A stretch of DNA of 60,246 nucleotides, the filler included, from Sphacelaria rigidula (taxonomy: Eukaryota): NCBI GenBank assembly GCA_964200075.2. It is 9 parts of 9 records of this genome, joined end to end, with 100 filler letters (N's around TTAATTAATTAA, not from the genome) between each part and the next. Parts side by side here need not be neighbours in the genome. Positions count along the whole stretch, not along the records: positions 40,233 to 46,837 come from CAXNAA020019107.1; 8 more parts are not named here. One strand, 5' to 3'. How positions within the stretch are numbered: position 1 is the stretch's first letter; every line of letters begins with the position of its first letter. The notes under the pieces are model-generated. The model was not told the DNA's origin, searched no databases, and saw only the letters and a program-made list of their open reading frames with translations. The position numbers and the translations under genes were made by a program. This document shows, one piece after another, positions 2,201 to 59,961 of the stretch.

Positions 2201-2520
2201 GAATATAGTTTGAGAAATGAGACCTTGAGTGATTATTCGAAGGCTGCATGGAAGCTAACAAAATGGTAAAGCCCCGGCTATGAACATCGAATGAGGTGGA
2301 TGTCCATAAATTGTAAAATACTGAAAAATGAGTACTGCCTCCGTCCGTGAGGGCAACCAACGCCACCCAGCAGCCTCACTTCAACTACCATGAAAAGACC
2401 AAGTCGTTAGTATTAGCCGAGCTCAAATCTATCCTCGGCGCAAGTTATTTAATTGATCGGCTGAGGCAGGGGGGGGGTGTACTCATGGGGTGTACTCATC
2501 TGAGGCAGGGGGGGGGGGGG

Positions 2521-5500: not shown

Positions 5501-6450
5501 CTTCCTTACCCCATCATTCTACTGCTGTGTAGCATGGTGTCAGTTTTTTTCCTATGGCTTTGCTTGCTGGGGGCTTGATGACCAGCCCCCATTCTTCTAT
5601 AACCTTCACTCCTGCCTGATCCCTTTATATGCGGCATTAGCTGTACCTACGCTTTCGAACACCTTGGAAACGGTTACTGCATGTTTGGCCATCTCTTCTT
5701 GGAACTCTTCTGTATTACTCTATTTCGAGTTCATATGTTCTCCATTTGTTCAGCTTTTTTCCCCGCCTCCTGTTTGTTACAACTCTCGAAGTGATCAAAA
5801 CAGGCAATTCTCCGTAATTCCCACGTCCGCTGCGCGTACGCATACTTCCGTTTCCTTACCACTTCCAATTTCATCACTTTATAGTCAACAATGGAGCTTC
5901 GTTCCTTTCGCTTGCAATGTCTAGCTGGTGCATTGCGGATCTGGCATATTTCCTCTATTGTTTGATGTCGTCATCTCGTAATTCGCGAAGAACTTCAACA
6001 TCTCTACCTTATTCCTTTTTTTCTCCGTTTCCCCATATTGCCCAAATTGGGTGTTATCATCCGCTCGGCTTACCTTTCCAATTCTTGCAATAAAGTCTCC
6101 TACACTAACGTTACTTGTCACCATCTTTCATACCTCTGTACACCATCTGCGTTTTCTTCGAGCTTCCTACGTATATCTCATCCAGTACTCTTCGACCCTA
6201 GGGGCATAACGATGTTCCTTAAGAATAAACGCTTCGTTTCTCGCTCTCCTGGTACCCGTATCCATACGTTGTCGTCGTTTCTTGTGTTTTTGATCACTTC
6301 TCTTATGTCACACAGGTACCCCTTGACCACGAATCCTAGTCACCCCGCTCCTCTATTCTTGTGTTCCTTCCCCTTTCTCTCTCTCCCTATCCATGCATGC
6401 GTACTCTCCACCTTTGCATCCTATTTCCGCCCCCTGTTTCCTCCACATCT
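2521..6450 (-). mobile_element. Decayed, 5'-truncated LINE (APE endonuclease + RT + C-terminal Cys/His motif)
   Basis: Minus-strand fragments include VGDFIARIGK (APE, 5921-6124), VVNLLKKGDEADVDNPRGRALLSPVGK (RT, 4671-4973) and LVFADI (~3878-3895). It is colinear with 53783-57400. The 3' UTR at 2521-2600 ends at G13 (2508-2520). It has many stops and frameshifts and a MITE inserted at 4153-4600. Confidence 0.9.
4153..4600. mobile_element. MITE with ~45-bp TIRs starting AACAGCCGAT
   Basis: Left AACAGCCGATCATCGAAATTGAGGATGGAGCTTTTCATTGAGGAT pairs with right ATCCGCAATCAAAAGCTCTATCCTCAATTTCGATGGTCGACTGTT. It interrupts the LINE RT motif that is intact at ~55390-55415. Partial copies lie at 26823-26876, ~46695-46837 and 53323-53542. 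Confidence 0.88.
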
Positions 6451-6454
6451 TTGG

Positions 6455-6606
6455 TAGTGGCGATACCAGAAAATAAAGCAACTTATTGTCGGCTGTCATC
6501 CTAATGCAAGATTATCAGTAGGCTTCGGGCCGAACACTCTTAGCAGGATGCAGCTCGCCCTCCATGCGACTCGCCGAACACACCACTGCGCTCCGCGGTT
6601 GGCGGT
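6455..6606 (+). mobile_element. Internal fragment of SINE-like family B
   Basis: GTGGCGATACCAGAAAAT...CAAGATTATCAGTAGGCTTCGGGCCGAAC matches 20600-20720, 39378-39510 and 42568-42705. Confidence 0.8.
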
Positions 6607-6706
6607 NNNNNNNNNNNNNNNNNNNNNNNNNNNNNNNNNNNNNNNNNNNNTTAATTAATTAANNNNNNNNNNNNNNNNNNNNNNNNNNNNNNNNNNNNNN
6701 NNNNNN
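6607..6706. other. Artificial contig linker (44N-TTAATTAATTAA-44N); first of eight
   Basis: Identical 100-bp spacer at 6607-6706, 13313-13412, 20018-20117, 26723-26822, 33428-33527, 40133-40232, 46838-46937 and 53543-53642. TTAATTAATTAA gives stops in all six frames. Intervening contigs are 6606, 6606, 6605 (x6) and 6604 bp, i.e. sorted by length. Confidence 0.97.
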
Positions 6707-26722: not shown

Positions 26723-27382
26723 NNNNNNNNNNNNNNNNNNNNNNNNNNNNNNNNNNNNNNNNNNNNTTAATTAATTAANNNNNNNNNNNNNNNNNNNNNN
26801 NNNNNNNNNNNNNNNNNNNNNNCGGGTTCTCATCCTCAATCAAAAGCACCATCCTCAACATAGATGATTGGCTGTTTGTAATAGAGTATGAGGAAACCAA
26901 ACAGAGAAAACAACATTTGACCCAGAAAAAAAAACAGATGCGATACAAGCTAAACAGGAATCAAGAAGAAAGAATGTATGGCTAACTGTGATATGATCTC
27001 ACATAACCTCAAAAGATCCGGTGACGCAGGCGACCATTCGGACTGCAACAGTATCTTGCTGTTACAACGATTTTTCTGTTGAATATACCAGAAACCTGGG
27101 AACCTCGAGTTTGAAATCACTTCTACTGAATCAATTAGACGCCTGATGAGTATGCTCCATCCTTCCGTCAGTGCTATTCCTTTTCAATAATATGGAGGCG
27201 GTGCTTTTGGAGAATAGGCGCCCCAACACAGCACACCTGGCGTCTGATGAAGCCGAAAGTTGATGTTTGTGTGGGATCCAGCCGAAGCTAGGTGTCGACA
27301 CAGCAGTTTCGGCGATTTTACGGAGCGGGGGACTAAATGTCACACATAATAAAGTGAAGCATGAAACTAGCGCGGCAAGTAG

Positions 27383-27772
27383 CGGATTGGTGGTCGTGGG
27401 CGGATGCAGAAGTTGAAGCTGGAGCAGGACATGGTCGTTGGGTTGCTCGGTGGGACAGCAAGTACCATAGAGTACAAGGCGCACTATTTTCCCCGCGCAT
27501 CCTCCCTCCCTAGGGGGTGTGCTCATAATATTGCATGCCGTCGCCATAAGACCATTGAATTTGCATCCCTACGAGGCCTGGACGGAGCACGCCGGGTTTT
27601 TGCCGGATTAGGCTCGCAGTCACCATGCGCCCTTCCTAGGGGATTGATGATACTTTTTGGATGGAAAACAGTACGCCTTGTACTCTACGGTACCAGCTGT
27701 CCCACCGAGCTACCCCAGCGACCATGTCCTGGTCCAATTTTAACCTTGGCCTTCGCCATGATCACCAATCTG
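27383..27772. mobile_element. Foldback-type MITE (~110-bp inverted arms) with a family B insertion in its centre
   Basis: 27383-27492 is reverse-complement similar to 27663-27772 (e.g. CAGGACATGGTCGTTGGGTTGCTCGGTGGGACAGC vs GCTGTCCCACCGAGCTACCCCAGCGACCATGTCCTG). Confidence 0.8.
27517..27629 (-). mobile_element. 5'-truncated family B copy with 13-bp TSD
   Basis: Reverse 3' tail of family B, flanked by CCCTCCCTAGGGG (27504-27516) and CCCTTCCTAGGGG (27630-27642). Confidence 0.82.
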
Positions 27773-27961
27773 GTACATTTTGCGCGTATTTCTTCCTTGA
27801 TTTATCATGTCTGTAAGCACTCCCGTGGTCAAGACCAACGTCTCACGGCCCCACTCCTGACTTGAATTGCAAAAAAAAAAAACTCATTCCGACAGGAAAA
27901 TTGGTCCAGGCGCCGAATCCGAGGTGCCTTTGGCGATAATAGCATTCGTTTCACTGGAAAA

Positions 27962-30890: not shown

Positions 30891-33800
30891 TTTCATGCGA
30901 CGAAGGCACAATTGACGACCGTCTCCTTCGAAAATCTCTCGTTGGTGAAGAGCCCGATGATTTAAACGGGAAGAGCCTGGGCGAGACAAAAACTGAAGCA
31001 TTCATACAACCATAGCCTGGCAACTAGTCGGTTATATAAAAGCTTTTTGGCGATGACCAAACCAATATGTACCATTTAACTGGTTAGTGGTTGCGCTACG
31101 CGTAACCACTCAACGGGATAACGGTTAGGCAAACCAATTCCGAGCTCTACTGGCAACTGAGATCGGTACAAAAGACATATCCTATGCCGCAGCACAGGTA
31201 ATGCACAGTGCAGTGCAAACATATCGCCGCCTCGAAGCAACCTATCACCGTTCATGGGCGAAGCACACGGAGGCTCCTCAACAAAACTTGCCATGAGGAG
31301 AAAGGGCGGGCCACCGACCCCAGAAAACGTGACGGGCGCGACGGCCGGAACCATAACAAGAGAAGAAAGTGACGGACGGGATGGGGGGGATATTCCGTTG
31401 TCCTCCGGAAGACCTGACGATCCGTCACGAACGGCATGAGTGCGACAACCGCCAGACAAAAGCAGGACGGGCGGGACAAGCGAGGTAATATGTCCCGTCC
31501 CGCGTCTCAGGGGATAAATGGATCCCGTCTCGTCAGATTTCTCGTCCCGGTCTCCCAGAAATGTGTACGTAAACAAGCCAGGATCAGCGCATTCAGACCA
31601 GAGTGTAGTGGAACTGATTGTTATAGGCATTGACCGAGGGCTATTGTTAATCGTTTCCTACGTGGAGCAGCCCTCAATGACACTGCAACAGTCACACTGC
31701 ACGGGAGAGCCGCTGTGGAATCTGCCAGTCGTTTTCAATGGGAAACATGATGTCTATTCAACGTATGACCCACCATAGCGGTCAAAGGGTTCATTCAACC
31801 AAGTGAGACCAAGTGAGCGCCGCAGAAGCTGACACCGAATGTGGCAAACAGTTCAAAATCGGGAGGCGAAAAAAAAAGCCGAAGAGCAGCCCTTCACGAC
31901 CAATGCTATCAGTCACTGCGACTTCTTATCGTACCACGCTAATGTTTTGGAGCCTCGTGAGAGCTCACACCCTGCCGAAACTGAGTCTGTCGACGCAGGA
32001 AACCTGGACAAGGGAAGGCATATTTCACGGTACGTTTGTATGCCTACTTAGAAGTACGCAAGACATAAGCCATTAATGTAGTTCGCAAAGATCGAACTGA
32101 CGATAGAAGCGCTCATTCACCGTGGGATGGACAGGACCGCAGACCCTAATAAAAAACGGACGGAGTATTCCGTCCGGTCTGTCGTATCGTATTTTCTATC
32201 CTATTTGGCAAGCCCTTCTTTTTTTTGGCATATTTTCATTGTGTACTGCACAACTTGCACCATTTGATATCATTATTACGGGATAAACATTTCGACCACC
32301 ATCAGTTCATCCAAGCCCAGGTACCTACAACCAATCATTTTGTATGTAGTTGCTGCCGCAGAAAATACATCCAACGCTCCGTGATCAGCGTGCTAACCCT
32401 GTTTTTAATCCCACACCCATACGGATAGCGGAATTTCTCCCACGGCCAACTTGGCTCGGAGGCATCTTGTTTCAGGTGGCAGCGCGCGTATCTGAATAAA
32501 CGGCGTAGAGGTTAAGTACGTACATTCAAATCCGTGCGGGAGAACCCCAAAACGGCTTCAACTACAAGTCAAGTACATATGCATGACCTTCAAACGGCTT
32601 CGTTTGGTCATTCTCGTCAGAAACGTTCTTCAATACTTTGCAAGGAGTGTGCGCTGGCACCCACAGCTATTGAAATATACTCAAGTATACTCTGCTCATG
32701 ATTTGGCAATCTTGGTAATTCCGAGACAATGCTGGCACACGTTGAGCGTGTTAAGATATCGAATGGATGCATTTCACATCTTCCCAGTCATTCGTACCCT
32801 GCCATCTACTCTACTGTTGTACGGCACATAAGCACAGCCGTTTTTCCATCAGCGACTGAAAATAGACAGATACAGCACAATTAGTGTGTCATCACTTTGC
32901 ACTGCGACTAGCCTACTGTGCGCTGAGTCCATCTCTGCTCAGTGTTGTACGGGAACAATATAATGTGACTATTCCCTTCAATCGAGCAGAAATACTCAAG
33001 GGTAAGGACCTGGGGCTGGGTAGTCTCCGGACCCCCGAAAACCGGCCAGCACGTAAGTCGTTCAATAATGAGCGCAGATGTGATCTTATTTCGGAATGTT
33101 GACGGGATGCTTCATATCTCCCGATCCCGAACTTCGGAACCAAACGTTCACAAGATGAGCGGTGGCACACGAAATCACCTCCGAACATCCCGGACGAAGA
33201 AAAATATATAAAAATCTCCTACAAAGTTTTTCAGATGAAAACTACCGCACTACTGTCTGCACTTCACCACACAAGAAGCATGCGACAGAACGTTACGGAG
33301 CACGTACTTTTGCTGGAACCATCAGCACAACTGCCAGTGCGGCGAGTGATTCTACGGTAGGGGGGGGCGTACTCATTTGTTGCTTGCCTTAGTCATTTGA
33401 CCATTGACCACGCATCCCTTTCGAGACNNNNNNNNNNNNNNNNNNNNNNNNNNNNNNNNNNNNNNNNNNNNTTAATTAATTAANNNNNNNNNNNNNNNNN
33501 NNNNNNNNNNNNNNNNNNNNNNNNNNNAGTCCTTACTAAGTCTTCGTCATTATCCCCCGCTGAAACATCAAACAGAGGTTTTGAGGTGGGGGGGGGGGGG
33601 CTCTGCATTCGTAGCAAGGGTGACAACTGTTCTCGTCCGCTTTGACTGGGGTCTCAAGGGAGTTGCGGTCGTCGACGTGAGCGTTTACCCTGTCTTTATC
33701 GCCGGTGGGGTCGGTCATGCGGTGGTGCAGAGTGCTGACACCGATGTCCACGCCACACGCAAGGCAGACGAAGAGGATCCGTTTCTTGGGGCCCTTCGGC

Positions 33801-37795: not shown

Positions 37796-39334
37796 TTACT
37801 CTAACACCCCCTCCCACCTCAGCCACGGACGGCGCCGGCACGCACAAGCGAAGACGATGAAGAAAGCAGCAACAAAGTTGAACCTTCTTGAGGGTGTTAA
37901 AAGTGATTCGGAGAGCCGGTTGGTGCGTGTGATGCCTCCAACCTCAAAATGTGCCTCGTTTGAAGTTGCGACAGTCAAGTCTGAGAAGTCCAATCAAGAC
38001 TCGCTCTGGTCAAAGGGGATCGAAATGGGGGTGCACTCGTGTGCGCCCCAAGACAGCTGCGAAACACAATGCCATGATGACCAATGAAGCTGAATTTTGT
38101 TGGGGGCATCTCGATTGACGTTAAAAGAGCGATGGGGTGGTGTTTTCGCGCAGCGCGGCTTCAAATCAATTCGGGGAAAACCAGTGCGTGGTTCGGAGCT
38201 TCATAATGAGGCCCGGACGGACAGAGGGACGGATGGACACTTACTGAATTTCGGTTCGGTGAAAGTATTTTCCATTCTACGGGCCTTAAAGAAAAAAACC
38301 ACAAAATTCACCAAACGCAAAAAATATGACAACTTTCGAAAACTTGCCCTCCGGGAGAGCGGGGGAAGTCTCCGCGTCCAATGTTTTTCTCTCGTCAGTC
38401 CCTTGGGCTAGATGGAAATAGGATCAGAGTGAGGATTCCAATTGTGTATACAATCGTGAACATTTCTGGGGGGTGCAAATGACACTTGTACTGCTTGTTT
38501 TTCACCAATCACGTCTACACAAGGCATATCTGGTATGCAGTGTACATGACAGCAGCAAGCCGATCGCTACAAGCTGGAATGTAGCAGATAAACAGAGCAG
38601 GGATCAAAGGACACACATGAGCTTCAGCTTTTGAATTGATAGTAGTAGTATTTATCCCTCTTGTTGCACTAATAATGTTCATGAATTGTGGTAGCTGGTA
38701 CAAGCCTAGTAATTTCTCGGTGCCAATCGTGTAGATATCACCAAAAATCGCTGCTCCCTCACATACAGCGTGGAGCCTTTTTACAGCACTAGTTCGGTAT
38801 ACCTCCATAGACTGCCTTGTGCCCAGGACGCTTCCACTTTCAATTTGTTTCGGTTTATGTGACGTTGGGCTCGGATTGCGGCGGTAAAACTGGAGTTGTC
38901 TTGGCTGGGCCTTTGTTAGTAGAAGTGGCTCCAAAATGAAGGTCTGTCGCACGCACCCGGGGTATGGTGATGCGTCGTTGCACGGAAGCATAAAGTTCCA
39001 TTCAAGCGTAAAGTTGTACGGAAGCATATATCGTGTTCGTGTAATCGTCGTCGCCCTACATTCGCAAGGGCCAGCAGCAAGCCGGCGCTGAGACACGAGC
39101 CGTTCCCGGCAATTTTTCGCCAGGCCGTTCCGCACTAGTCCCAGCCACTACCATATGCCTGTTTTTAAGTACACGTACAGGATTCCCTTCCCAGTATACC
39201 ACAGACTAAAAGTTGCTCACTACTCTTTGTCGGGCAGACAGGAGGCAGCATCAAGCGTTAAGCAGCTGCACGCTAGCCAGAGGGGCCCCATATCGGAGAA
39301 TGACAGAACCACCCCTCCCCCTCCCTCCCTGGTT

Positions 39335-39646
39335 AGACACCCATGACGCAGTGTATAAGCCGTGGCTGTCTCTGGAAGTGGCGACACCACAGAATAAAGG
39401 AACATAGTGTTGGCTGTCATCCAAATGCAAGATAATCAGTAGGCTTCGGGCCGAACCATCTTAGCAGGATACACCTCACTCTTCATGCGACTCGCCGACC
39501 ACACCACGGCGCTTCGCGCTTGGTGGTTTGAGTGCAAGCCTGGTCCGGCGAAAACCCGGCGTGCTCCGTCCCGACTTTGTAGGGATGCGAGGTCAATGGT
39601 CTTATGACTATGGCATGCATGATCATGATTACACCTCCCCCCCCTC
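39335..39646 (+). mobile_element. 5'-truncated SINE-like family B copy between C-rich tracts
   Basis: Family B body and tail, with upstream CCCCTCCCCCTCCCTCCCTGG and downstream CCTCCCCCCCCTCCGG. Confidence 0.82.
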
Positions 39647-42256
39647 CGGCGGTCGTAGGATTTTGTTTTTCCACAGTAAGAAACACTCAATATACAACCA
39701 TTTTAGGACGAATTGGGTGAAGTAGCGCCCACGACTGTTGGCCCTATCTGCCACCACAACACTGGACGCAAATTGGCGGTGCAGATAGATGCGCCAAGCT
39801 CGATTGAGGAAGCATTGCAGATCATTGCGGTATGTCTGGTCTTGTTCTTGTCGTGGAAGTGTGCTGTGCAATATAGTGCCGAAAGTCATGAATATGACTC
39901 GGCCTTGGCTCCGGAGGTATGCGAAGAATAAAAGAATCGTTAGCACGAATTTTTATTCTTTATTTCCTTTTTCACTTTTTGACTTTTTTATTAATACATA
40001 GGATTTAGTAACCCGTCAATGGTCTGATGACTATGGCAAGCATGATCATGAGTACACCCCCAGCCTGGTCCGGCGAGAACCCGGTGTGCTCCGTCCCGGC
40101 TTTGCAGGGGCGGACCCCCGATGGGGTTGGCGNNNNNNNNNNNNNNNNNNNNNNNNNNNNNNNNNNNNNNNNNNNNTTAATTAATTAANNNNNNNNNNNN
40201 NNNNNNNNNNNNNNNNNNNNNNNNNNNNNNNNTAGGGATTGATTCGTACGATTCGAATCAACTACACTGAAACCAAGTAGTTTCCAGACGAATCATTGAT
40301 TTGTCCGACCCTTGAAAAACGCGACAAGACAGTGTCCAATGGCGCCTACCCGCAAGGACATGACACTTGGACAAGTAGATGGAACACGTACGTGCATAGG
40401 TCGGCTGTAGGACTGTCGGACCACGCCGACGCACCGCAAAGCTTTATTCTCAAAAGTAGCCGATCATATGCCAGAGCATGTATCGGCGGACTGAAGACAG
40501 ATGATTGAAAATCAGTGTTTTTCGAATACAGGGTTGTGACGCATAGTGCGACGGAGAGCAGCTTAATTAGGGCTTTCACGAGAATTTTTACACGTGCATG
40601 GGAGATGCCAAGGGAGAGATGCCATTTGTACACACCCCACAGGTAGGGGGGTATGGTAAGTCGGAAGGTTAAACAGTTGAGCAGTACTGAGTCCTGGACG
40701 TGTACAGTTAGGGAGAGAGCAAAGTGGCTTGGGGGGTTGTTTTGCTACACTCCTACTTCGCCATTCTTACGCACATCCTCGGCATCGGCAAGTCTTTCAT
40801 CAGCTTTTGACATGCAGTCTATTCGCAGCTTGCTATCAGTTCAACTGGTGAGTTTGAGTTAACTAGCATAAGTGGATAACACCCGGGTTTCGTACTCCCG
40901 TTTAACCCTTTTGGAACTCACGATGGAAAAGTATTCATTTGCGATTGACGGTTTTTGAGCAAGATATGGTTGATGGTTTACAGCACAGACGCAACAACAT
41001 TCACCAGATGCGTATTTTTCAGACCCGTGCGAGTGACAAGTGGAATAAAATAAGGTTTCCTGTCCACCGATGTGACGTATCAGACCCCGGAACCCATTGC
41101 TGTTTTTCGAATGAAATGTTTTATATTGTTTTCGCTGATTATTGCCGATGGATACAACTGGACACACTTCATGCGTTGCGTGGTATGATTGGACCAATCT
41201 CACCCGACCTCTCCAGGGAGGACGTTTTTTCTGCACCCGACGCGCGTGCTACTGGATTCTAATTCGGTTTTCCATTATAAAATGGTTGCCGTCGGCCTAT
41301 TCTGCTTCCATATTTTCCTCTGTCAGGGCTTCTCATGATGAGGCGTTTGGCCCGGGGACAGGAGGGGAGGGTTCCAAACGGGTCGACATGTTATTCTCCT
41401 CCACGTTTCCTCCACAACATATGTCATACTCCGTGGACTTCTCCGTACATGATTGTCATGCTTCCCTGACTTTCGGAATTGCTGACAGCACCCACAAAAC
41501 ACACGTAGACGCGAAAGTCGTTCACAACATCAAAGTACGAGCAGCAGCAGCAGCAGCAGCAGCAGTTCATTTGGGAATAGCGATGACACCGATGTAGATA
41601 TGTTAGACATGAAATATACCCAACATGCACACAGTGTTGTAGGCAGCAAGGCGGTGTTGCAGCGAGTAGTGCTACGGGAAGCGATAATATTTTTCAGAAG
41701 AGCTCTTCCAAATCGCGTCGCGCTTCCGCGATAAATACTGGGCGGAGGGAGGGGGTTCCAGACCTTGACAAAAAAACACGCGCGGAACGCTACGGTGCAT
41801 TTCCTTTCCTCATTTTCGTCTAACGTTACAAGGTAGTGTCACCAAACCATGTCGCATCTTAGCGCTAGTGTCTAGAGCGTTTCTAGGCCTTCTCGATTAG
41901 AGTACGCGCTGAGCGTTACGGCGCATCCATTCCCCACCATCTTTCATTTTCAGCACTCAAGTTGTTAGGATCGTTCTACGGAGGACAAATTCGCAGCGAA
42001 AGGGCGGAGAGGTCGGGTTCCTTTCTTTTGTAAGGGACAAGGCTTCGAGCTCACACCCTGTGTAGTGTGGGTCGCGGACACAAGGAAAAATTGGGCGAGG
42101 CAACGCCAACCTCAGCCCGCAGGCCTTGTCGACTGCATACAGATCAGCTGGCCTGAGTCATAAGGACCCCGCCACACGTAGCATGACACATATCATGACG
42201 GGCAAACGGACATAGTAGGTACAGGGGAATAGTAGGACTGCAAAAGCATCACCCCC

Positions 42257-42711
42257 TAGCCTGGTCCGGCGAGATCCCGGCGTGCTCCGTCCCGGCTTTG
42301 TAGGGGCGGACCACCGACGGGGTTGGCGTCGGTTGGCGATGACGCTATAAACACACGCCACTCACTGCGTAAGCTAGGCAACCAGGTTACCGTTTTGTTT
42401 TTGCGCACTTGCGTTGTTTTTGCGGTAACCATAATAGTAGTCGAGCTAGATCATGTTGTGCGGCATGGGAGAACCTCAACTCCGCACAATGGGGATGATC
42501 ATACCAAGAAGTGTTTATATGGTGAGACAATCATGAGGCAGTGTATAAGCCGTGGCTGTCTCTGGAAGTGGCGATACCGCAAAATGAAGCAATGAATATG
42601 TAGGCTGTCATCCACAAGCAAGATAATCAGTAGGCTTCGGGCCGAACAATCTCAACAGGATGCAGCTCACGCTTCATGAGATTCGTCGAACACACCACGG
42701 CGCTTCCAGAG
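42257..42711 (+). mobile_element. Longest SINE-like family B copy including its 5' head
   Basis: It starts (T)AGCCTGGTCCGGCGAGA just after CCCCC. The same head occurs at 40062-40132 and, reversed, at 53643-53760. It runs into the family B body, and the 3' end is lost at the 10-N gap 42712-42721. Confidence 0.78.
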
Positions 42712-44562
42712 NNNNNNNNNNCTCCGCCGCGTGGTGGGGGGGGGCGGCCCACTGCGTCCTCCCCGCGGGATCGTTCATCAGGCTCCCCCCCCCCCCCCCC
42801 CCCCCAGCTTGGTGGTCATATGGGCCCAACGCCATCAAGCTGAAGATGTGAAACAGAGTATCCTCATCTTTCCACAAAAACATTGACCCTGGTGCAACGG
42901 GGGATTCGTGCACTCTCAAACTCGCAACACACATGTCCCACACCTTGACATGCCAACATCATTGAATTGCATGATAACAAGTGGGCATAAAGCAAACACC
43001 CGCGATATAACCATGAGCAATAATAGACACAAATGGGAATACTCACCCCCCTTTTCAGCCAAACGTGGGTACAAGTATAACCGAAAGTTGTACCAGCCCT
43101 TGCTAAGCCCAAACGAATCAAAGCTCAATCCCGACGCAAAAGTAGCGCGCTCACACAGCCCACGCAGAGCATGTACATGAACTTTTACGTGGAGAACAAG
43201 TGCGATTTAGGGTTAGACAGCACCGCAGGGCACACGGTCCTCGCGGAACACCTGTTCACGTCCGACAATCGAGTGGGTATTCCCACTAATGACTAGGTTT
43301 CTTGTACCCCCTTTTTGTCCATCGTGTGACAACTTTTGACCGAAGTTTACTCACGTTTGACCTTTGTCGGCCTTCCGAAGCCGCGTTTCAGCAATTGCAC
43401 GGGTCGGATGAATATATGATTCGTCTGGAAAGCACTTGATTTTAGTGTGATTGTTTCGTACCGTATGAATCAGTCCTTGGGCTTTGATTTCAGCGTTGCA
43501 ACCCAGGTACGCGCAGCCCAGGCACGCGGGATGGCGCAAAAGTTGCGTGGGAACCTTTTCGGCCATCGGTCGACTTTTTTTCTCCCTTCCGAGCAATCAG
43601 GCATGAAAAATCGTGGATTTGGTGATTCGAACCGGCGATAATTCGTCCGAACAGTGAAATATTGTCGGTCGATACTTCCGATGATAGTTGCAATAGGCTA
43701 ATACTTAAACCAGTACATTGCTTGTCTACTGTATCTATTGGTCATATCTTTGTCCGGGATGTGGGATACTTGAGATACATCTAGTTATACAGGCTGGTTC
43801 ACGCTCATCACCCAAAATTGTCTGAGCTCCGAAGAATACGTTTTGCAGAATCTACCCAATTGTCGCATACATGAAATTATACTGATCGCCATGCACAGCT
43901 GAAGAGAGTGACAGCTGGATTTGTGTTTGAGGCCATAGTGGCGCTGAGGGCGAAAATATGCCTCGACCAATCAGCGCCCTTCAATTTGTTCTGATGTCGA
44001 AAGTAAGAATTCCAACCCCAACTTTCACCCATTCTCCACATGCTCCCAATCGCAGTAGCCGTGATCAGCTCGGGAACCTAACGGAACAGAGTTGAAAACC
44101 TTACGACGGGGTCACATTATACCCGAAACCGTGGTGTTTCAGTGATGTGGGGTCTTGGCGTCATCTAATTTCCAATAATGATGAGCACGAAAGACCCAGG
44201 GAGCCTCGTGACGGTTGCCCGTATATCTGGTCTGGAAAAGCTCAGATGGCCTTCAAACTTGGCGGTTCCGTAGGTATTGATGCTCCAAATGCAAAATTGC
44301 ATTCTTGACAAGATTTCAAAGTGTCTCCGTTCTCTACCGGCTTCCCCGGAAGGTGGCACAGAATACCTCGCAAAAGCAAATGACATGATGCATCCCGGGG
44401 TAGTCCAAGGAACATATGTACAAAGTTTGGTCGAGAAACTCGAAAACCTTGTATAGTTTTTCCCGCCTTGACGTTACATACACCAAAAAAAGACGTTTTT
44501 ATAGCAAAACCAAGACTTGGGAGTTCTGCACCTTTCAAACTCATGTCATCGCACAATGGCGC

Positions 44563-47800: not shown

Positions 47801-50528
47801 TCTGTTGCACTTACGTTTGTTTTATAACAGCTGCATCAACTACATACGGTTGTGTAGAGTAGATACAATAACTACGATGACAACTATTTTTGGCCTGGTT
47901 CTGTTTCATGCATCATGCTATTATAGTCAGCAATTTTACTGTGACACACCACTATTATTGTAGATGTCGTGCGTTGTTGTGCATCACAATCAAACAATCA
48001 AACGACCACAAGGCGTTGCACTTTATCGCGATAAATGGAGCCACCAAAGTGAGCTGTCATGTGCGGGTAGTCTACTAGTCCTCAACACCTCGAGAGAGCA
48101 AAGGCGACCGCAAATCTTTTCTTTGGCGCTCCAGGAGGGAGGGGGGGGAGTCCAGGGCGATATTTTTTACCACACATGTTTCCCATGAAGGATACCTTTA
48201 CACGCTCGAGGAAATGGGGATCATTCTGAAGTTTCTCACATGGAAAATTATCTGAAAAGTCAACATGGGAACCTTGATATCAAAAGTCTCAATGCGACGA
48301 CTCCACGCAATGACCACCTTGACCAGCCAACTACAACAATATGCTCAGCTTGCTCTGAATCAGTGTCGTTCAACATATATGACTCACATTCATTACGTCC
48401 GTCTCGTGACTTTACTCAGGAGGCGTTTGCACAGCATGCGCGGGTCTACAGTATGTACTGGTGTTTCCCGAGGTGTAGCGAAGTTGCTAGATGATGAGCA
48501 GTGGTACACAATACTGTGTAAGGCCTCCAAGGCCGCCCGTAGCATGACAAACCGAGGTGTAACGATTGAACGTCGGGTGTAGTAATTGGGAACGTGCACG
48601 TGGCTTTTCGAGCCATAAAATCTCATTTCCCTTGCGGAAACCCGCGTCTTGCGTGTTTTTTCTTGCCTTGAGTTGGAAGTATTGATATCCTGGGCGAATT
48701 CTTGCATGCCTTGAGTCTGTTCTCCCCCTCTCATAGTAAATTGCCTCTCGGATTGCAACGTGGACGGGTTTGTTCGAAAGCTGTGGCAGCAGGCACTCTG
48801 GAAATCCCTCTCTAACGTGTAAGTGAGATGAGGGGTACAATGCAGGGTGGTTAAGGGTGAGCGACTGGAGTATACTCCCCAGCGATTTCCCGTGCCGTTT
48901 TTTGCAGTTAAACCCTCAATTTTTGCATACGAGTGCTCTGAAATATTTCCGGAGGGCTCTATGAATGTGATATTTCGTGTTTTGTTTTTCTTTTTTGCCA
49001 GATGTCCGGGGTCTGACCGGCGAAAACAAATGCCCCCCCAGCTGGAGCCTCAGATATCTGGCGAAAACAAAATAGAAAGACTTTCCTTCATGCAGTCCTT
49101 TGAAATATCTCAGAGCATCGGTATGCAAACTATCGGGGTCTAACTCCAAACCCCGGCGTGAGCAATTGGCCGTTTGTGCGCTGAAGTAAACAGGTGTACG
49201 CGAAACACCCGTGATAACTCAATTTTAGTATGCTACCGATGTCGTCCTTGTGCGCTTAGGCTTAAACCGACCGTTCGGGATCAGTTTTTCGTGTTACGCA
49301 CAGAAATTATGTACAAATGTTCCTTGGACTACCTCGGGACGAGTGAAATTGGAAATTTTCATCTTGAAGCAATCTGAAGGTGTTCAAGCTGGGACCCCTG
49401 GAAGGTAGTAGAGAGCGGATGACCGTTGAAATACTCTTGAGTGTTTTTCTCCCCATTTGAAACACCAATATTCACCAAATGTCTACGTTTGAGCATGATC
49501 GGAGCTTTTCTACGAAAAGTACAAGGGAAAACGGCAAGAGACTTTCTGGGTCTTCGATGCCTATTATCGGTGGGAATTGGACGACGCCAAAACCCCAAGT
49601 CACCGAAACACTACGCTTTCCGGTATAACATCCCATACAAACCGTTTCGAATATGATTTTTGCGTTAGAATCCCAACCCGATGTCGGTTTCTAGGGTGTG
49701 ATTCGTGATGAGCTTGATCACATATTGCGTGAGGAATTCGCATACTTATTGTCAGAACAATTTGAACGCCGCTGATGGGTCGAGAAATGTTTTCACCAAC
49801 AGCGCCCCGGCAAAGATACGAGAAAAATCTGGCCATGCCACACTGTTCGCTCGCTCGTGGGCGTCACTATGACACCAAATATATTTCTATCGGGTCCGTT
49901 TCGCGTTCTGTATCTAGTGGGGGGAACAACTTTCGAGCGTTTACCCTGAACCAGCCTGTAGCCCGATACCCCGGCTTGTCGTATTCCGGAACGATTTGAT
50001 ATTCATTCGATCGAATTTTCGGGTACAGTCAAACCGACTGGTAATTTCTGAGAAGAGAGTCGATCTGTCTTTTGTGGGAATTACCGGCCATTCTACTGCA
50101 AAGGGTATGGCATATATATATATATATATATTGCAGCAGTAGTTTTTCGAAGCTTTTGCGCATGGTTGTAGTTCTGTGCACAGTACTTTGGGTTCATGTG
50201 TGTTGTGGCCACGGCTAGATTCCACGAGGATCAATCAATCACTTCATGTGCGACAACCAATCAACCAACTCAGCTGTGCCGCCCCGACCCATGGCCCTGA
50301 TAAAAGCTAGCATCAACTGGGTCGGGTCAGGGGTTTCGAATCCCAGCCGAAAAGTTTCAATATTTTTTTTGCTGAGGACAGTCCGATGTTTGTCGTTGAA
50401 AACATAAGGACGTGAGTAGCGAAGAAAATTTAGCGTGTGGCGAAATATAATTTGGCGAAAGTCGACGAGGTGCGTGAGTGGTGATCTAATCCACGACATC
50501 AGTATACCAGGCCGGTACTTACCGGGGG

Positions 50529-50590
50529 TGTACTCATGATCATACATGCCATAGTCATAAAGACCATTGGGTTGGTGCTTAGTATTGGGT
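50529..50590 (-). mobile_element. Family B 3' tip with 16-bp TSD
   Basis: TGTACTCATGATCATACATGCCATAGTCATAAAGACCATTG is flanked by CGGTACTTACCGGGGG (50513-50528) and CGGTACTTACCGGAGG (50591-50606). Confidence 0.82.
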
Positions 50591-51042: not shown

Positions 51043-51507
51043 GTGAGTGCGTGTTTGAATTTTGGCGTGCGTCAATGTCCACGCCCAGAGTAAAGTATTC
51101 CAAGCATGTATTATGTGGGGTACGGGTTTTGGCATACCCGGGGTATTCGCCCGGGTATCACCCGTACCCGACGGTTCTGCGAGGTTTGTAAACTTCTATA
51201 CCATTATCTGACACTTGTGAAAAATCTGCACGAAATATTTATTTTTCACCCGGAGATCGGGAATACCCTTGTGGAAATAAACACCCGGTTGTGGGTAAGG
51301 GTTTCTGTACAGCCTCCATACCGTACCCGACGGGATGCTTCTATACATTATCATGATGATTGGGGATATTTGGATTTGATGGACTCCTTTTCTTTTGTTT
51401 CTTCTCGTAGGATTCACGTGAAAACCGTTAAACTGGAAGGCCTTTCAGGTAGTGTTCTACGGGGTATGGGTATGTTCGGTAGGGTACGAGATTTTCACAG
51501 AAACCTT

Positions 51508-52226: not shown

Positions 52227-52949
52227 GAAAACTTGCAGCACTGCCGGGTATACCTGGTGTGGAAGTCTTTCAGAACCTACATAACCTGTCCGTTACGGTA
52301 TGCAGATTGTACAGAAACCTCCACCCCCAACCGGCTATTCATATATTCCCACAAGGGTATACCCGTACCCCGGGTTATGGTAAACATTTCGGACAGACTG
52401 TACCGAACTGTGGGGTACCGGTATGGGAGGCTCACAGAATTCACGGAATTGTCGAGTGCCGAAATGAGAGGCTTGCATAACTCACAAAACTGTCGGGTAC
52501 GGGTAGTAGCCGGGTACATACCCTAATATACAAAAAATCGTACCCTACAGAACGCAGCCTTGGACATTTACCTCCTGCACAGACAGTACGGTACCATACT
52601 GTACGGTCTTCCAAACGTTATATCCCAACAACATGATGCGTGCTTCTTCCACGGGACTGTTGGTCGGGAATATTGTACCGAAACGAGGCCCGACGCTCAA
52701 CGGATTGACTTTTTGGGAGTCTGTAGCTTGGTTCTTGAATGCGGCTCCATTGGGGTTGAGTTAGCATATATTCTTTCCCAGCTTCGATTTTTGAAAGCTG
52801 CGTGTGCAGTAAGAAACGGTATCTCGACGCCTGCTCTGCTGTTTACAGAATGACTGTGGCCTCTATCGTCGACGCCCGGCCGCTGACCAACGTTGGCATA
52901 CATACATACGCTTGTTCTCGCCCCCGTCCCGCCGTTCTCCTCTTTACAG

Positions 52950-53116: not shown

Positions 53117-53782
53117 GTGAGTCATATGTCACCGGGGATGCTTCGGGGCTTGAATTTTCTGTAGAAAGAGCGCCGCGGCAGAGAGTCTCAGAACACGTCG
53201 CAGTCGAAGAATTGAGGCACAGACTCGAAAGCGCGAACCGAGTTCGGTATGCCTTGAGTCTTCTATCACGATCCTTGCTTGTAAGCATGTACTGTAGTAG
53301 TTTCCAGCTGCAACAGGGGATTTAACAGCCGATCATCAAAATTGAGGATGGAACTTTTCATTGAGGATGATGACCCAGAAAATGAAAATCTTCGCATCTA
53401 CACCAATTCTTCGAGATATGGTTATATTTTTTCATGTGCTGGTTGCTATTGACAACTTCTACACACCATGAGAATTTGGATTCCGATGGTCGAAATTTGG
53501 GGGTCCTATTGCAGGTGAGAAACTAGTTCTTGGGAATTCAGGNNNNNNNNNNNNNNNNNNNNNNNNNNNNNNNNNNNNNNNNNNNNTTAATTAATTAANN
53601 NNNNNNNNNNNNNNNNNNNNNNNNNNNNNNNNNNNNNNNNNNCGCTTACGCAGTGAGTGGCGTGTTTTATAGCGTCATCGCCAACCGACGCCAACCCGAT
53701 CGGGGGTCCGCCCCTACAAAGCCGGGACGGAGCACGCCGGGTTCGCGCCAGGCCAGGCTAAAAGAGGTTAAAGAGGGGGGGG

Positions 53783-56700
53783 AGAGCGTACTCATTCGTT
53801 GCTTGCCTTCGTCGTTTGACCGTTGACCACGCATCACTTTCGAGGCTGAGCATCGTTCTTATTCTTATTGAAGACACTTCCAACATTTTGGCGTTCATGA
53901 CGTTTCTCTCATGCACTACACAAAAACCTCTCACACATCTTATCTCCTTCCTGATTCGCCGTCTGTGGCCACCATCTATCTCCTAGTACAGTATTCGTTT
54001 TCTCGCTACCGTGCAATGTATCAGACGATTCCAAGTCACCTTTTTTTACTCTCCACATCTCCCCCTCCAACACGTCTCGTTCCTCCTTGTGTAATTCACA
54101 TTCTATCACTATGTGAGTTCTATTTTCTATTGTTTTTGTCACAGGAGCAACTCTGGGCATCTGCTTCCCTATCCCATCGAAAACTGGAATACCTGTTCCT
54201 TCTTCCTGGCTGGTCCAGGTCCCCCACCCAAACTCGCACCATCAATTTTTCGCCGACTCCGTTGGGCCATGCTGATATGTTTTTATCCCGATCACATCTC
54301 GCAACCCCCGTACATCTTCAGGTGTTCTTCCTCGTCTACTTTCCGTCTTAGCGCTCCTCATCCCTTATTACTATCGTGTCTCTCACTTTCGTCTTGTACC
54401 CGCCACATTTACCTACGGACAGCGTATCGTCTTGATTTCCTCTCATGTCCTTCCATACTTTCTCGACTACTATCCCACCTTATTCCAGCCTGACTTTTCG
54501 TCATTTTCTTCAATACGGCCCTATCAACTGTGGCTGGCGATCTCTTTTTGGGCATGCTCCCCACTTTATATTGCCATATCAGTTTTCTCGTGTCTCTATT
54601 TTGAATAGGTACATTCTCAACTCTGCTCTCAATGCTGTACTACTCGTCGCTTCCGAACATCCAAGTATTTTCTTAGCCTCAGTCACCTGTACTGTTTCCA
54701 GCTTCGTCACCGACTTCGCGCTCCCCTTTCATACTTCTCCGGCATATTCCAGCCTTTGGCACAATCATATTAATCAGAATGCATATCTTTTTCCTAGTAT
54801 CTAGGTGCAAATCTCTTAGGGTCTTGCCCATTGCCGATCTGTGTCTTGCCCTCTTTGATTGCTTCACATGTGCATCCCAACAACAGTTGTTTTAGCTTCC
54901 TACGCCAAGGTATGTATACTGATCCACCATCGGCAGTTCTTCGTCTCCCCACTTCCATTTGAATCTACCGGTTTCCCTTATCTTCGTTGCAAACAAGTAA
55001 CGCGCATTTGTTTACATTCGCTGTCGCTCTCCATTTCCTAGCGCGTTCTAGCGCTATCTCTGTTTGTTTCTACATTCTTTTCGGTGTTTCTGATAACCCC
55101 ACGAAATCATCCGCGAACATCAATCCTGATATCGTGATTTCATCCACCTTGACTCCTTGGTTTGCTGCTCCTATTATTGCTGTTATCACGTCATTGATAA
55201 ATAATTTGAATGCAATGGGTTATACCCTCCACACCTATGCAACTTCTTGTGAAATATCAAAATCTTTCGATATCCCCCCACCTAGTATCATGGCACTTTC
55301 GGCACATTGTGTCATCTTCTTCACCATTCTCCACATGTTTCCCCTGTTATCATCTTCCCATAACCTTTTCCGCAGCTCATTTCTCCATACTGCGTCATAG
55401 GTCTTTTGTACATCTAGAGAGAAACAATACGTTGTCAGCCCGGCGTTTTTCCTACGCTGAGTACTCTTACCTAATGTGTACACATGATCTACACAACTAC
55501 GGTGTGGTCTAAAACGTGCTTACCCTTCGCTGAGATTTTCTCCGTTCCTTAGCATCGTTCCCACCCTGTTATTCAGGATCTTACAGAATGCTTTCCCTAC
55601 GGTGCTCAGTAGCGCCCCCCCTCTGTAATTCTCCGGGTAAGCCTTCTCTCTTTTCTTGAAAAGATTTACAACTACTCCTTCTCTCCACCTCTTGGGTGCG
55701 CAATCATTTTTCCACATCCAATCATACGGCATAACCATCATGGTAATCATTCCCTCTCCCCCGTACGTAAGGAACTAATTCACTATTTCGTCTGCCTCTG
55801 CTGTCTTTCTCTTCTTGAGTTAGCTACACATTTCTTTACTTCACCTCTGGTGAACTCTATCTGGAATTCTTTGGAGACACTGTCCCCCCGATTAGATGCC
55901 CCTACATTTTCCTCTGCCCACACGTTGATTTCTTTCTCGAATTCCTTGTCAAAACTCTCGATAGCTTTTGGTGTTCCTAGTTGACGGTTCTGTTCTACTA
56001 GTGCTTCTCTCTTCCCAATCGAACTACTAACCATTTCACCGTTCAGTAGCTATCCCCTTGTCTGTCTCCCCTGTTTGCTCATTGTCCCTTTCATCTCTAC
56101 CCACATTTGCTTCATCCCGTCATCTCTACCCACATTTGTGTCATGAACTGCATCTTCCCACATTCTTTTCTTTTTCTTCTCTACTACACTTTTTACTTGC
56201 TTTCGAGCTCTAGTATACTCCCCCATCTTACCATAGTTTTACTGGATATATATCTTGAGTGTGCCTCTCTCCTTACTTTCATAGCCCCTTGTACTTCCTC
56301 ATCCCACCATTTTATCGTTCTGTTACATACGATCAGTTTTTTTCCCATGACCTTACTTGCTGTAGTCTTGACCAATTGGTCCCATCTTTCTTCGTCCTGC
56401 CCAATCCCTTTCCATTTCGGTATTCACTGCACCTACTCTTCCCAACAACTCGAAAATTTCTTCTGCATTCTTGGCCACCTCTTCTTAGAAGTCTTACCGT
56501 TCTCTCGTGTTTTTAGCTCATCTATTCTCCATTTGTACGGCTTCTTAACCCGCCTATTTCTGATAGCTCTCGTCTGTTGGTGGTCCATAATAGGTGATGA
56601 TCTCTAGTTCCCACGTCTTCTGCGCATACATTTACTTTCATTCCTCACTTTTTCCACTCTTACCATTATATAGTCAAGAACGAAGCTTTATGTCTTTTTG

Positions 56701-58430
56701 CCTTTGCATTGTGTAGTCCATGTATATTGCGTCTCTCGCTTTTGTGCTCCATCGTTCAGCGCCTTCATCTCGCTATTCTCACGGAGCTTCAGCGTATCTA
56801 CTTCATTCGTATTCTTCTTTTCTTCCCCGTATTGGCGAATGATATCATTCGGTTGACTACTTTTCCAACTCTTGCATCAAAATCTCCCACGAATATTGCT
56901 CCTTCTTGCCCTTTATACTTCTGTACTTCTGCTGCTATCTCTCCAATCTCCTCTGTATATCGTTGTGCCGTACTCTTCGATTCCGAGGGCATCTAGATGT
57001 TCCGCTCTCCTGCTACCCTTATCCATCTACTCTCGTCGATTTTTGTGTCTTTGATCACTTCTATGATGTCACACAGGTATCTTGACGCAGAATCCTACTT
57101 CCCTCGCTCTCTTGTTCTTGGGCTTCTGTCCTTTCCACTTTTTCCCTATCCATGCGTACTCTTTAACTTCGCATCCTCTATCCACTCCCTCTTTCTCCCA
57201 CGACTCTTGGATTCCCACTTTATCTAGGTCGCAGTTACTTACTTGTTTGGCTATCTCTATTATTTTGCACTCGTCTGTGGCGAATCCACACACGTTCCAC
57301 GACCCTATTCTCAACTTCCTTCCCGAATCATTATCCACTCTCTTTGTGTCTATCGTTCTCAATCCGTCCTTTTTACTCCTATTTTTCCGTGCTTAAATTT
57401 TGTTCCCGTTTCCGTTTCGGTCTTTGTCTGTTTTCTTTGGGCCGCTACTTCCCCCTCCCTTCACCTTCCGGGCTTTTGCTCGTTCCTGATTCCCCCTCCC
57501 TCCCTCTACCCGCGGACTACGTCTTAGGTTTGCCATTCCGTCGGCTCTGCACACTCTCCATCCTGTCCTTGTTACCTATGCCGACACCTTACTTGTCTCT
57601 ATCCTTCCCCACTCTTTGCTCGCGCCCTGTTTTAGCAAGACTCGGAAGTGTTCTCCCTCACCCTCTACTCTCTACTTTTTCTCTTGTCGAACAGTATAAT
57701 CCTACTTCATTGCATTTCCTTTTCAACTCTACCCTCGTCATATCGCTAGGTACTCCAAATACCACCGCTACTAGTACTTTACCCGTTCACTCCATGGTTT
57801 CTCCATCCACCCTTCCTTACCGTCTCTGTCCCTCGATCTCTCGAGAGAGTATCTTCACCTTGTTCGTTTTAAGCATTGTGGTGGGATATGGTCCAGGCAC
57901 TGGGATATCCCAATCCTAGTACTTGTTTGGTGTCTGGTGCCCTTCAGTTCTTTCGCTGGCTCACCGACACTAAATAGTGCCTCCAACACGGGCTTGTAGC
58001 CTGAAGCTAAGTTCAACACCCTTGACACAAGTACCTCACATTTGTGCCAGGCGATCTGCATGGTAAATCATTTAGACTTCCCACGGTCGATTAGTCTAAC
58101 TTCTTGGCCAACTGCTGTACGACTCACTTTCTTCCCGGGAGGTCATTTTCACCGTGTACGGTTCAAGGACGGCTTGCATGATACAAGATCTTACTCACAC
58201 ATCGGGACGTCCCGTACATCATCACTTCCTCCCACCCCACGTACGGTCCACCATGGATTGCTACTCCAATAATGCTCCCGAGTAGATCTTCGCTGCAGAA
58301 AGCTTGGCCAACGATTCTCTCACACCTTGCACCGCTTCTACCCTTCAAGATCTCAATGTGTCTTCGTACCGCTTGGTGCTCCTTCTCGTTGGTCATGTGG
58401 CCGGTCATTGGTAAGGTGTTTGTTTCATGA
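53783..58430 (-). mobile_element. Near full-length decayed LINE (ORF1-like region + APE + RT + C-terminal Cys/His motif)
   Basis: APE motifs: LRIGSWNVCG...GIQES (57069-57362) and VGDFDARVGK (56798-56992). RT motifs: ENYRGGALLSTVGKAF (55520-55750), LDVQKTYDAVW (55235-55483) and LMFADDF (55103-55123). C-terminal RTHIVIECELH (53909-54160). The 3' UTR ends at a G8 run (53775-53782). The 5' boundary is approximate. Confidence 0.93.
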
Positions 58431-58849
58431 GTGCAGTAGATCTTGACGTTTATGTAATGGATTATCCACTATTTCCCTTCATTTGACGCCTGTACACTCA
58501 ATGTCGGGAGTTTTAGACTAACCAAATGTCCACCGCCCACTGGAAATCGGTAAAGGTTTCCGGGTATTTTACCACGATACCCAACCTTCGGGTGGATTTA
58601 AGATGTCGGAATGGCCCTATCTATTCCATCCGTATCTCCCATATCTTTTAGACTTTCGATTAGCATGTAGGGTGGTCAACCTTCAAGCATATCATGTCTG
58701 GGTTTAATTTTGTTCATGCCTCGCCTTTAATACGACATGGGGAGGGGACAATGTCGATTTTTTCCCGTCATGATAAAGGGTAATAAAAATGTTTTTCCCC
58801 GCTCTTTCATGCCCGACTGTGTTCTGGTTGATGCAAATAATAAGATATT

Positions 58850-59885
58850 TAGCTTCGTTATTCCGTGCTTATGTTTAGGCTGTGCTCTGAAAGGTTAAAG
58901 AAAACATTGTGATCAGTTTTTCTCTTCAATGTCCGTCTGTGCCATGTTATGGTAGGTAGAACAAAAAAAAACAAGAAGTGGTTAGCTTCGTCCTTCAATG
59001 ACTATACCCGGACTGTGTTGTGGTAGCTTGAAGATAAAATGGTGAGCTTCGTTATGCCATGTCTATATCCGGGCTTCGTTGTGATAGTTTAAAGGAAAAC
59101 ATGGTAAGCTTCGCCATTTCATGTCTATGTCCGGGCTGTGCTGTGATAGGTTGAAAAAAAAATGGTCAGCTTCTTCATTTCATGTCTATGTCGGGGCTGC
59201 GTTATCGTAGGTTGACTAAAAAAAGGCGTTAGTTTCGTCATTGCATGTCTGTGTCTGGGCTGTCATTCCATGTCTATGTCCGAGCTGTGTTATGGTAGGT
59301 TGAAGACAAAAAATGGTGAGCTTCGTCCTTTCACGTCCATATCCGGGCTGTGTTCTGATAGGTTAAAGAAACAAATTATGTCCGGCCTGTTCTGTGATAG
59401 GTTGAAGGGAAAAAATGGTTAGCTTCGTCATTTTATGTCTATGTCCGGGCTGTTTGTGGTAGGTTGACTAAAAAAAGGCGTTAGTTCCGTCATTTCATGT
59501 CTGTGTCTGGGCTGTCATTTCATGTTCATGTCCGGGTTGTGTGATGGTAGATTGAAGACAAAGAAGTGATTAGCTTCGTCATTCCATGTCTATGTCCGGG
59601 CTGTGTTCTGATAGGTTAAACAAAGAAGTGATCAGCTTCGTCATTTCATGTCTATGTCCGAGCTGTGTTATGGTACGTTTAATAAGAAAATGGTTAGCTA
59701 TGTTTTTTCATGTCTATATCCAGGCTGTGTTTTGTTAGGTTGAATAAAAGCATCGTTAGTTTCGTCATTTCCTCTCTATGTCCAAGCGGCATTCTGGTAG
59801 GTCAAAGAAAAAGTGGTTAGCTTCGTTATGTGATGTCTAAGCTTAGGCTGTGCTATGGTATCTTAAAGAACAAGCATGGTTATGT
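58850..59885 (+). repeat. Tandem array, ~58-bp unit, roughly 17 diverged copies
   Basis: Approximate consensus AGCTTCGTCATTTCATGTCTATGTCCGGGCTGTGTTATGGTAGGTTGAAGAAAAAATGGTT. A higher-order block is duplicated (GACTAAAAAAAGGCGTTAG...GTGTCTGGGCTGTCATT at ~59215 and ~59466). Confidence 0.92.
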
Positions 59886-59961
59886 TCAGAAAGCGAATAG
59901 CTTACCCATTGAACCAGTGGCCGCTCACTGGTTCAATGGGTAAGCTGTTCGCTTCCTGAAC
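59884..59961. other. 36-bp-stem hairpin/inverted repeat
   Basis: GTTCAGAAAGCGAATAGCTTACCCATTGAACCAGTG-GCCGCT-CACTGGTTCAATGGGTAAGCTGTTCGCTTCCTGAAC; two DNA mismatches (one is a U-G wobble in plus-strand RNA). Confidence 0.9.

Follow-up and report, generated by a model that had tools for sequence, protein, structure and literature searches.

A short repeat at 42257-42711 raises the question of what kind of element it is, how it is copied, and why its first 48 nt return near its 3′ end. It lies in a window of 60,246 nt of DNA from Sphacelaria rigidula. Our preferred answer, which we hold to be reasonably probable, is a non-coding, non-autonomous brown-algal retroposon of about 570 nt that resembles the RTEX-N1 and ‘Sower’ repeats and is copied in trans by an RTE-X-type LINE encoding an APE endonuclease and a reverse transcriptase (APE-RT). 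A sequence-only reading of the same DNA had suggested a non-autonomous element of roughly 0.6 kb mobilised by a C-tract LINE, and the present analysis supports that suggestion.

The window consists of nine unrelated contigs of about 6.6 kb and the spacers between them (44 N, 12 nt, 44 N; starting at 6607, 13313, 20018, 26723, 33428, 40133, 46838 and 53543), and adjacency across the spacers is meaningless. One further gap of 10 N lies within the window at 42712-42721. No complete copy of the element is contained in it: the copy at 42258 ends at the 10-N gap, and those at 40062 and 53759 end at contig ends. Five contig ends fall within the element family or the LINE tail, as is to be expected of abundant repeats in a short-read assembly. 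Pieces of the family account for 1718 of the 59436 sequenced bases, a figure that the contig ends inflate.

Contigs from public sequencing runs were therefore aligned to 42050-43000 at 80% likeness, using four of the 21 runs listed (49,067, 43,084, 3,228 and 53,738 aligned records). The run designated X1 is identical to the flank and may be the source of the window itself. Depth in these runs was not taken as copy number, and run X6, whose RNA origin is a guess, was not counted as evidence of expression. The element is present in runs labelled ‘algae metagenome’. Exact-pattern scans of viral contigs gave no match to the element, and a scan for the LINE protein there likewise gave none. Six metagenome matches and one genome match to the patterns were discarded as chance 20-mers with flanks that lack similarity.

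The 5′ boundary of the element is sharp at 42258, as judged from depth and loose ends in the public contigs. In run X1 the depth rises from 23 in the flank to millions from the bin that holds 42258, and in all four runs the loose ends before this position are a mixture of C-rich flank and linker. The leading T at 42257 and 53760 belongs to the flank. The element contains no RT-coding region and occurs in many dispersed copies with a defined 5′ end; the family stops at 42258 rather than running upstream into an RT-coding region, which would have made it the 3′ part of another LINE. The three head copies named by the sequence-only reading are all present, at 42258, 40062 and 53759 (−), which differs from the placement in that reading by one base at most. 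Positions 42257-42374 match 53760-53644 at 93% over 118 nt (E 1e-43).

The order of parts is a 48-nt repeat, the head, the body, a 20-nt linker, a second 48-nt repeat, the tail and a C-run. In the copy at 42258, on the plus strand, the 5′ copy of the repeat (42258-42305) forms the 5′ end of the element. It is followed by a junction (42306-42319) that comprises the 3′ arm of a stem-loop and a short C-run, then by a core hairpin module with a GCGTC/GACGC stem (42320-42362), a 9-bp hairpin with two opposed T-rich runs that are likely Pol III stops (42385-42430), and a non-coding body (42431-42711) that is cut by the 10-N gap. In the public contigs the body is followed by the linker and then a further 48-mer, as the loose ends behind 42706 show in all four runs; those behind 42305 run into the tail, again in all four, and joints lead back from 42706 to 42258. 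Head and body, whose linkage had been at issue, occur together on single contigs (for example 42258-42493 and 42257-42514). The length of 570 nt is that of the composite built from public contigs, and not of any one complete copy in the window.

The 48-mer recurs immediately before the tail where it had been reported, at 39537-39584, 20763-20810 and 27614-27567 (−), with 94%, 77% and 83% identity, respectively, to the copy at 42258. The first of these belongs to a 5′-truncated copy at 39330-39633 (+), which comprises body, linker, 3′ 48-mer and tail (39585-39633). The second lies in an older 5′-truncated copy between C-runs at 20483-20858 (+), and the third in a 5′-truncated copy of linker, 48-mer and tail at 27519-27629 (−) within an inverted-repeat element. 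We considered and rejected a second family for 27519-27629, since this truncated copy is flanked by a target duplication of its own. A head copy at 40062-40132 (+) is cut by a contig end, as is one at 53643-53759 (−) that lies directly behind the C-tract of a LINE copy. Tail-only copies are found at 40015-40056 (+), where the C-run leads straight into the next head, and at 50528-50569 (−). A 5′-truncated body copy at 6448-6606 (+), also cut by a contig end, sits in the antisense strand of a LINE copy beside a C5 run. Finally, a diverged core-hairpin piece without the 48-mer lies at 20888-20928 (+) behind the C-run of the preceding copy, and none of 60 shuffles matched as well.

The long imperfect inverted repeats of the window (27341-27492 with 27663-27813; 148-223 with 808-883; 4153-4600 and 53324-53542; 51099-51334 with 52285-52564) are probably MITE-like elements. 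One of them is interrupted by the 27629 copy and another lies inside the first LINE copy. Separately, a tandem repeat of about 62 nt, with up to about 16 units, occupies 58809-59882 upstream of a LINE copy, and 2.5 units of it recur at 21060-21217, 130 nt behind the core-hairpin piece at 20888. A perfect 21-bp inverted repeat with a 6-nt loop (59899-59946) lies just outside the tandem array.

The insertion pattern points to how the element is copied. A C-run directly follows all 11 tails, and a run of five C lies within 20 nt upstream of 8 of the 12 5′ junctions, with C4 at two more and neither at the remaining two, against a background of 1.8%. All three heads have C5 within 20 nt upstream, in keeping with the earlier placement of heads just downstream of C-runs. 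The insertions at 23660, 27629, 39330 and 13495 lie between target-site duplications of about 12-20 nt whose first bases are the C-run; the duplication of the 27519-27629 copy is 13 nt long with one mismatch, and that of the 39330-39633 copy is imperfect and C-rich on both sides. The copies at 40062, 53759, 20888 and 13495 sit behind the C-runs of other copies or of LINEs. The element thus shows target duplications of variable length and 5′ truncation, and it shares its C-tract target with the LINE. Insertions of this pattern are those of target-primed reverse transcription (TPRT), and LINE-dependent TPRT into C-tracts is well supported for this family. In this process the LINE protein would bind the 3′ stem-loop and tail of the element RNA, nick the G-rich strand of a C-tract and prime reverse transcription there, with the C-rich RNA end presumably pairing to the nicked strand. 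Copies would consequently stack head-to-tail behind one another's C-runs. Immediately after a LINE end, at about 2460-2510 (−), a tiny insertion consists of only the last tail bases, present twice, and is flanked by a C-rich duplication of 15 nt.

The partner LINE is present as two decayed copies. The one at 53790-57830 (−) has a single APE endonuclease and RT ORF, broken by many stops and frameshifts, that runs into the shared tail; the second, at 2520-6446 (−), carries an insertion of about 490 nt at about 4110-4595. Two LINE 3′ ends lie head-to-tail at 13413-13552 (+), the second within an imperfect C-rich duplication of about 20 nt, and further LINE ends are found at 23660-23694 (+) and 33369-33427 (−). 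Both decayed copies can be aligned along their length with P0004, a near-intact relative of 1360 aa that contains an APE endonuclease and an RT and has the C-terminus GAPSRKGCVVNGQMTKASNK. At the LINE ends of the window, the ‘tail’ codes for this C-terminal peptide, and the stop codon falls only a few bases short of the C-run. The tail is thus the last part of the ORF, and the LINE has almost no 3′ UTR. The proposed sharing of the tail with the LINE end is borne out (79-85% over about 61 nt), whereas its description as a 3′ UTR was wrong.

Among named proteins, those closest to the LINE protein come from Ectocarpus and share its C-terminus. The Ectocarpus proteins with this ending form two families, 71% and 52% identical to P0004, which correspond in number and form to the two single-ORF, (C)n-ended RTEX families described in the available parts of PMC12477816. 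A single APE-RT ORF and a (C)n end fit RTEX-1 and RTEX-2_Ec32, and the partner is called RTE-X type by this description and not by a tree. A C-terminal motif of the G-x-x-V-x-G type is present in 64 of 225 proteins, distant relatives included. P0070, P0074, P0082 and P0083, which are distant LINE relatives at about 36-40% identity, also end in it. An ending shared with such distant LINEs suggests an old constraint at the ORF end, perhaps one acting on RNA. P0058, P0182 and P0183 are algal LINE protein fragments filed in NCBI as hypothetical proteins of bacterial metagenome-assembled genomes, probably through host contamination of the bins.

The homology to the LINE continues about 25 nt into the 48-nt repeat, and about 75 nt of the element's 3′ sequence comes from the LINE ORF end. 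The alignment between the LINE end and the second half of the 48-mer includes a 5-nt insertion, and one frame of that half reads Ala-Pro-Ser-Arg (APSR), the codons of the LINE ORF end. This stretch is predicted to fold in the LINE as a short stem with a GAAA loop; the stem of the 3′ repeat has a longer loop than that of the LINE end, and in both 5′ repeats tested the stem forms again, its 3′ arm being altered. At the 5′ end of the element, the 5′ arm of this structure and its loop lie in the second half of the 48-mer. The 3′ copy of the repeat runs without a break into the LINE-derived tail, and the simplest reading is therefore that the 5′ copy is the one that arose by duplication. The origin of the head, for which a structured RNA, a ribozyme or a LINE 5′ UTR had been considered, is in this respect different from what was expected, half of the 5′ 48-mer being LINE ORF-end sequence that was copied from the 3′ module of the element. 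A weak antisense match between head and LINE end (E 0.03-0.09) was attributed to the stem-loop and given no weight.

How did a piece of the 3′ module come to stand at the 5′ end? We lean towards a single capture event, in which the 5′ part of about 62 nt is the relic of an upstream tandem copy. The capture is suggested jointly by what this 5′ part contains, namely the LINE-derived stem-loop with a C-run, and by the absence of the repeat from most relatives. In a tandem pair, a transcript starting inside the upstream copy would have taken along its 48-mer and stem-loop. The stretch of tail that separated the captured repeat from the core would then for the most part have been lost, leaving the 3′ arm of the stem and a short C-run, and this loss would have removed a competing priming site. 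The captured form, placed in front of an older core element, may then have become the dominant family here. The head would accordingly be composite: its front would be a duplicate captured from the 3′ module of the element, and behind it would stand an older core hairpin, putatively the former 5′ end of the family. The reading of the junction as a relic draws on translated relatives, and the junction of the 42258 copy (42306-42319) holds a short C-run where the other two heads have C5.

These relatives were sampled as spurious ORFs on family copies in public assemblies, clustered at 50%, which favours old copies. The core hairpin was found in 64 of 94 translated relatives, 39 of which have at least 20 residues ahead of it. 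In 37 of these 39 assessable relatives the repeat is absent before the core hairpin, the 48-mer scoring above the 99% shuffle cut-off in two and between 95% and 99% in three more; frameshifts may hide a 48-mer, and some of the relatives may simply be 5′-truncated. Many start at the hairpin behind a proline-rich (C-rich) flank, with recurring short leaders. Junctions of tail, C-run and core are intact in P0228, P0281 and P0305, and by eye in P0284, and in the window itself the core piece at 20888-20928 lacks the repeat. The residue at the 5′ junction is Asp in P0013 and P0239 and Trp in P0260; all three match the 3′ (tail-start) form and not the 5′ form of the window, with the ambiguity that back-translation brings, and P0239 lies between the 95% and 99% cut-offs. 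P0231 keeps the window's 5′ form at the junction and joins body, 48-mer and head without a tail. A one-off capture does not predict this tail-less join, which could reflect a template jump, recombination or an assembly artefact. Head positions 49-104 were also compared with the whole tail as its possible diverged copy; only 2 of 20 global comparisons, both against one copy, reached p<0.05, and the idea was dropped. In a related subfamily (P0242, P0250, P0255, P0262 and P0294) the core hairpin module stands twice at the 5′ end, which is a second, independent 5′ extension.

The alternative that survives best, which we nevertheless rate as unlikely, is that the element is a bipartite (internally deleted) LINE whose whole head, including the repeat, derives from the 5′ UTR of an RTE-X LINE absent from the window. 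RTE-type LINEs are among the few clades that yield bipartite elements (PMC5786205, as available in part), and the Ectocarpus curators record a ‘weak homology to 5′ of RTEX-2’ (supplement of PMC12477816, in the part available). Such an origin also fits Pol II transcription, and it can hold for the core hairpin alongside capture of the repeat. When head and body were compared with the 2.9 kb upstream of the window LINE and with both LINE bodies, nothing beyond shuffles was found, in a comparison from which the LINE 5′ end may be missing. A bipartite origin also leaves unexplained the ORF-end sequence at the 5′ end and the relatives that lack the repeat.

A less probable alternative is that the repeat works as a proto-LTR, the 5′ stem-loop copy serving as a second protein-binding or template-jump site. 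RT would jump between the repeats, or the 5′ stem-loop would bind a second LINE protein, and the repeat would be regenerated or selected in each cycle. The hairpin is indeed retained at the 5′ end despite its changed 3′ arm, and the 5′ and young 3′ repeats differ at 3-5 of 48 sites, as the 5′ copies do among themselves. The tail-less body-repeat-head join of P0231 would also fit, although a 48-nt repeat invites assembly joins. Non-terminal repeats occur in TART, and HeT-A arrays resemble LTR units (PMC5537684, available in part). Against a working repeat, position 16 is G in all three 5′ copies and A in all three 3′ copies, a post hoc observation on few copies, and the repeat appears dispensable since most relatives lack it. 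If it did function in this way, it would favour full-length insertion or tail-less tandem copies, and the element would offer a small, very abundant and assayable model for terminal repeats arising in non-LTR elements. LTR retrotransposons, including TRIMs, carry TG...CA repeats at both termini and produce a fixed short target-site duplication. Classification as a TRIM or other LTR element was rejected, given that the repeat starts with AG and ends with GG, the tail comes after the 3′ repeat, the duplications vary in length between about 12 and 20 nt and copies are 5′-truncated.

We consider it improbable to a still greater degree that the element is a true SINE, whose head would descend from a Pol III small RNA of the 7SL, 5S or tRNA kind and have diverged beyond recognition. 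A terminal helix just ahead of a T-run can close off a head of about 122 nt (z −2.6, one copy), and a 13-mer from 42257 resembles an A box with one mismatch. The stem-rich head that had been described exceeds shuffles in stability only modestly (z −2.6 and −1.7). The composite is also stabler than shuffled sequence (z −3.9), an effect due mostly to hairpins beyond position 120. The A box is equalled by 31 of 300 shuffles and is misplaced at the very start, and the B box, of which the sequence-only reading had seen no clear example, is no better than shuffles (266 and 65 of 300). ARAGORN found no tRNA in the window, Rfam gave no match at gathering level, and no derivation of the head from tRNA, 5S, 7SL or snRNA emerged; at E≤10, four copies gave only five weak miRNA or snoRNA matches, far below gathering, and no ribozyme. 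The core hairpin may resemble the SRP Alu domain, and the first 120 nt may resemble 5S rRNA, but neither likeness has Rfam support. A TATA-like hexamer at 42346 was dropped, as it varies in 32-48% of the depth. A body hairpin at about 42623-42654, whose flanks we take to resemble a loop-E motif, was rejected as a conserved feature (permutation p 0.20) and folds no better than shuffles; its equivalents lie at about 39430, 20657 and 6511, and its loop contains UUCG.

The T-runs also weigh against the SINE label. The copy at 42258 has runs of T4, T5 and T5 at 42393-42421, and among the 40 of 108 differences listed, T stands at 42397 and 42416 in 86-96% of the depth, which gives T9 and T8. Pol III terminates at four or more T (PMC3141230, as available in part), so that it should stop inside the element at about +137 and +157, and the label of a SINE in the strict sense fails. 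The element is probably transcribed by Pol II or by read-through, and not as one Pol III transcript.

Least probable of all is an element defined by a ribozyme (an HDV-like 5′ end, or a retrozyme) or a non-autonomous Penelope-like element (Chlamys) with a pseudo-LTR and tail: the sharp 5′ end, the 5′ ribozymes of several RTE LINEs (PMC5786205, in part) and a repeat-plus-tail geometry like that of pseudo-LTRs with a 30-40-bp extension (PMC8557442, in part) would suit it, but the ribozyme head once suggested was found neither among Rfam matches at E≤10 nor by a relaxed HDV-like descriptor and a hammerhead core on any of 10 strands (7 of 100 shuffles match the HDV descriptor, which was run without a positive control), and the ORF that ends in the tail encodes APE-RT and does not belong to a GIY-YIG element.

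The significance of the repeat depends on these readings. If it is functional, it bears on the origin of LTR-like repeats; otherwise the element is an ordinary genomic parasite. The probable recognition signal of the LINE would lie inside its ORF end, which would then be read both as protein and as RNA. The curators of the Ectocarpus family could not trace its 5′ region, and capture may be a partial answer to where such heads originate.

Overall, the element is an abundant LINE parasite of a known kind, with a terminal repeat that derives from its 3′ module, itself of LINE origin; in the available parts of the literature searched, we found no description of such a repeat. Its closest counterpart by description is RTEX-N1_Ec32 of Ectocarpus (Dinatale et al. 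2025, PMC12477816). In the parts of that source available, this family is a non-autonomous element of 607/604 bp with more than 6000 copies, C-rich target-site duplications, tandem copies and a 5′ region of undetermined origin that ‘may not be true SINE’; about 60 bp of its 3′ end is 83% like RTEX-1 and RTEX-2, which have a single EN-RT ORF and a (C)n end. The element studied here, at about 570 nt, shares with it the size class of about 600 bp, the C-rich duplications, the tandem copies and the roughly 60-bp 3′ end in common with a LINE, and is probably related to it, a comparison made by description and not by sequence. The text and table rows of PMC12477816 that are available mention neither a terminal repeat nor a coding tail, and the consensus may still hold the repeat. 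‘Sower’ is the most abundant unclassified repeat of Ectocarpus at about 2.5 Mb (PMC3145265, in part), close to the RTEX-N1 total of 2.48 Mb; we infer that the two are one family, in which case the model brown alga has an element of this kind as its most abundant repeat. An RTEX-1 LINE is mentioned for Saccharina, in a paper whose main text, as available, does not use the term SINE (PMC4421812).

Beyond brown algae, the element resembles RIME, Bov-A and R2 SIDEs, which in the available parts of PMC5786205 and PMC3414825 are short, non-coding, not transcribed by Pol III, provided with a LINE-derived 3′ end and found in tandem at shared targets. The same sources describe template jumps as a way for bipartite LINEs and SIDEs to gain 5′ sequence. 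In those elements the 5′ part is a LINE 5′ end, often with a ribozyme, whereas here it is a copy of the 3′ module and the searches found no ribozyme. The Drosophila TART and HeT-A elements offer the other likeness (PMC5537684, in part): they form head-to-tail non-LTR arrays with 3′ sequence again at the 5′ end, and an upstream copy serves the downstream one. TART and HeT-A are kilobase-sized, protein-coding and telomeric, in contrast to the 48-nt repeat of a dispersed 570-nt parasite described here.
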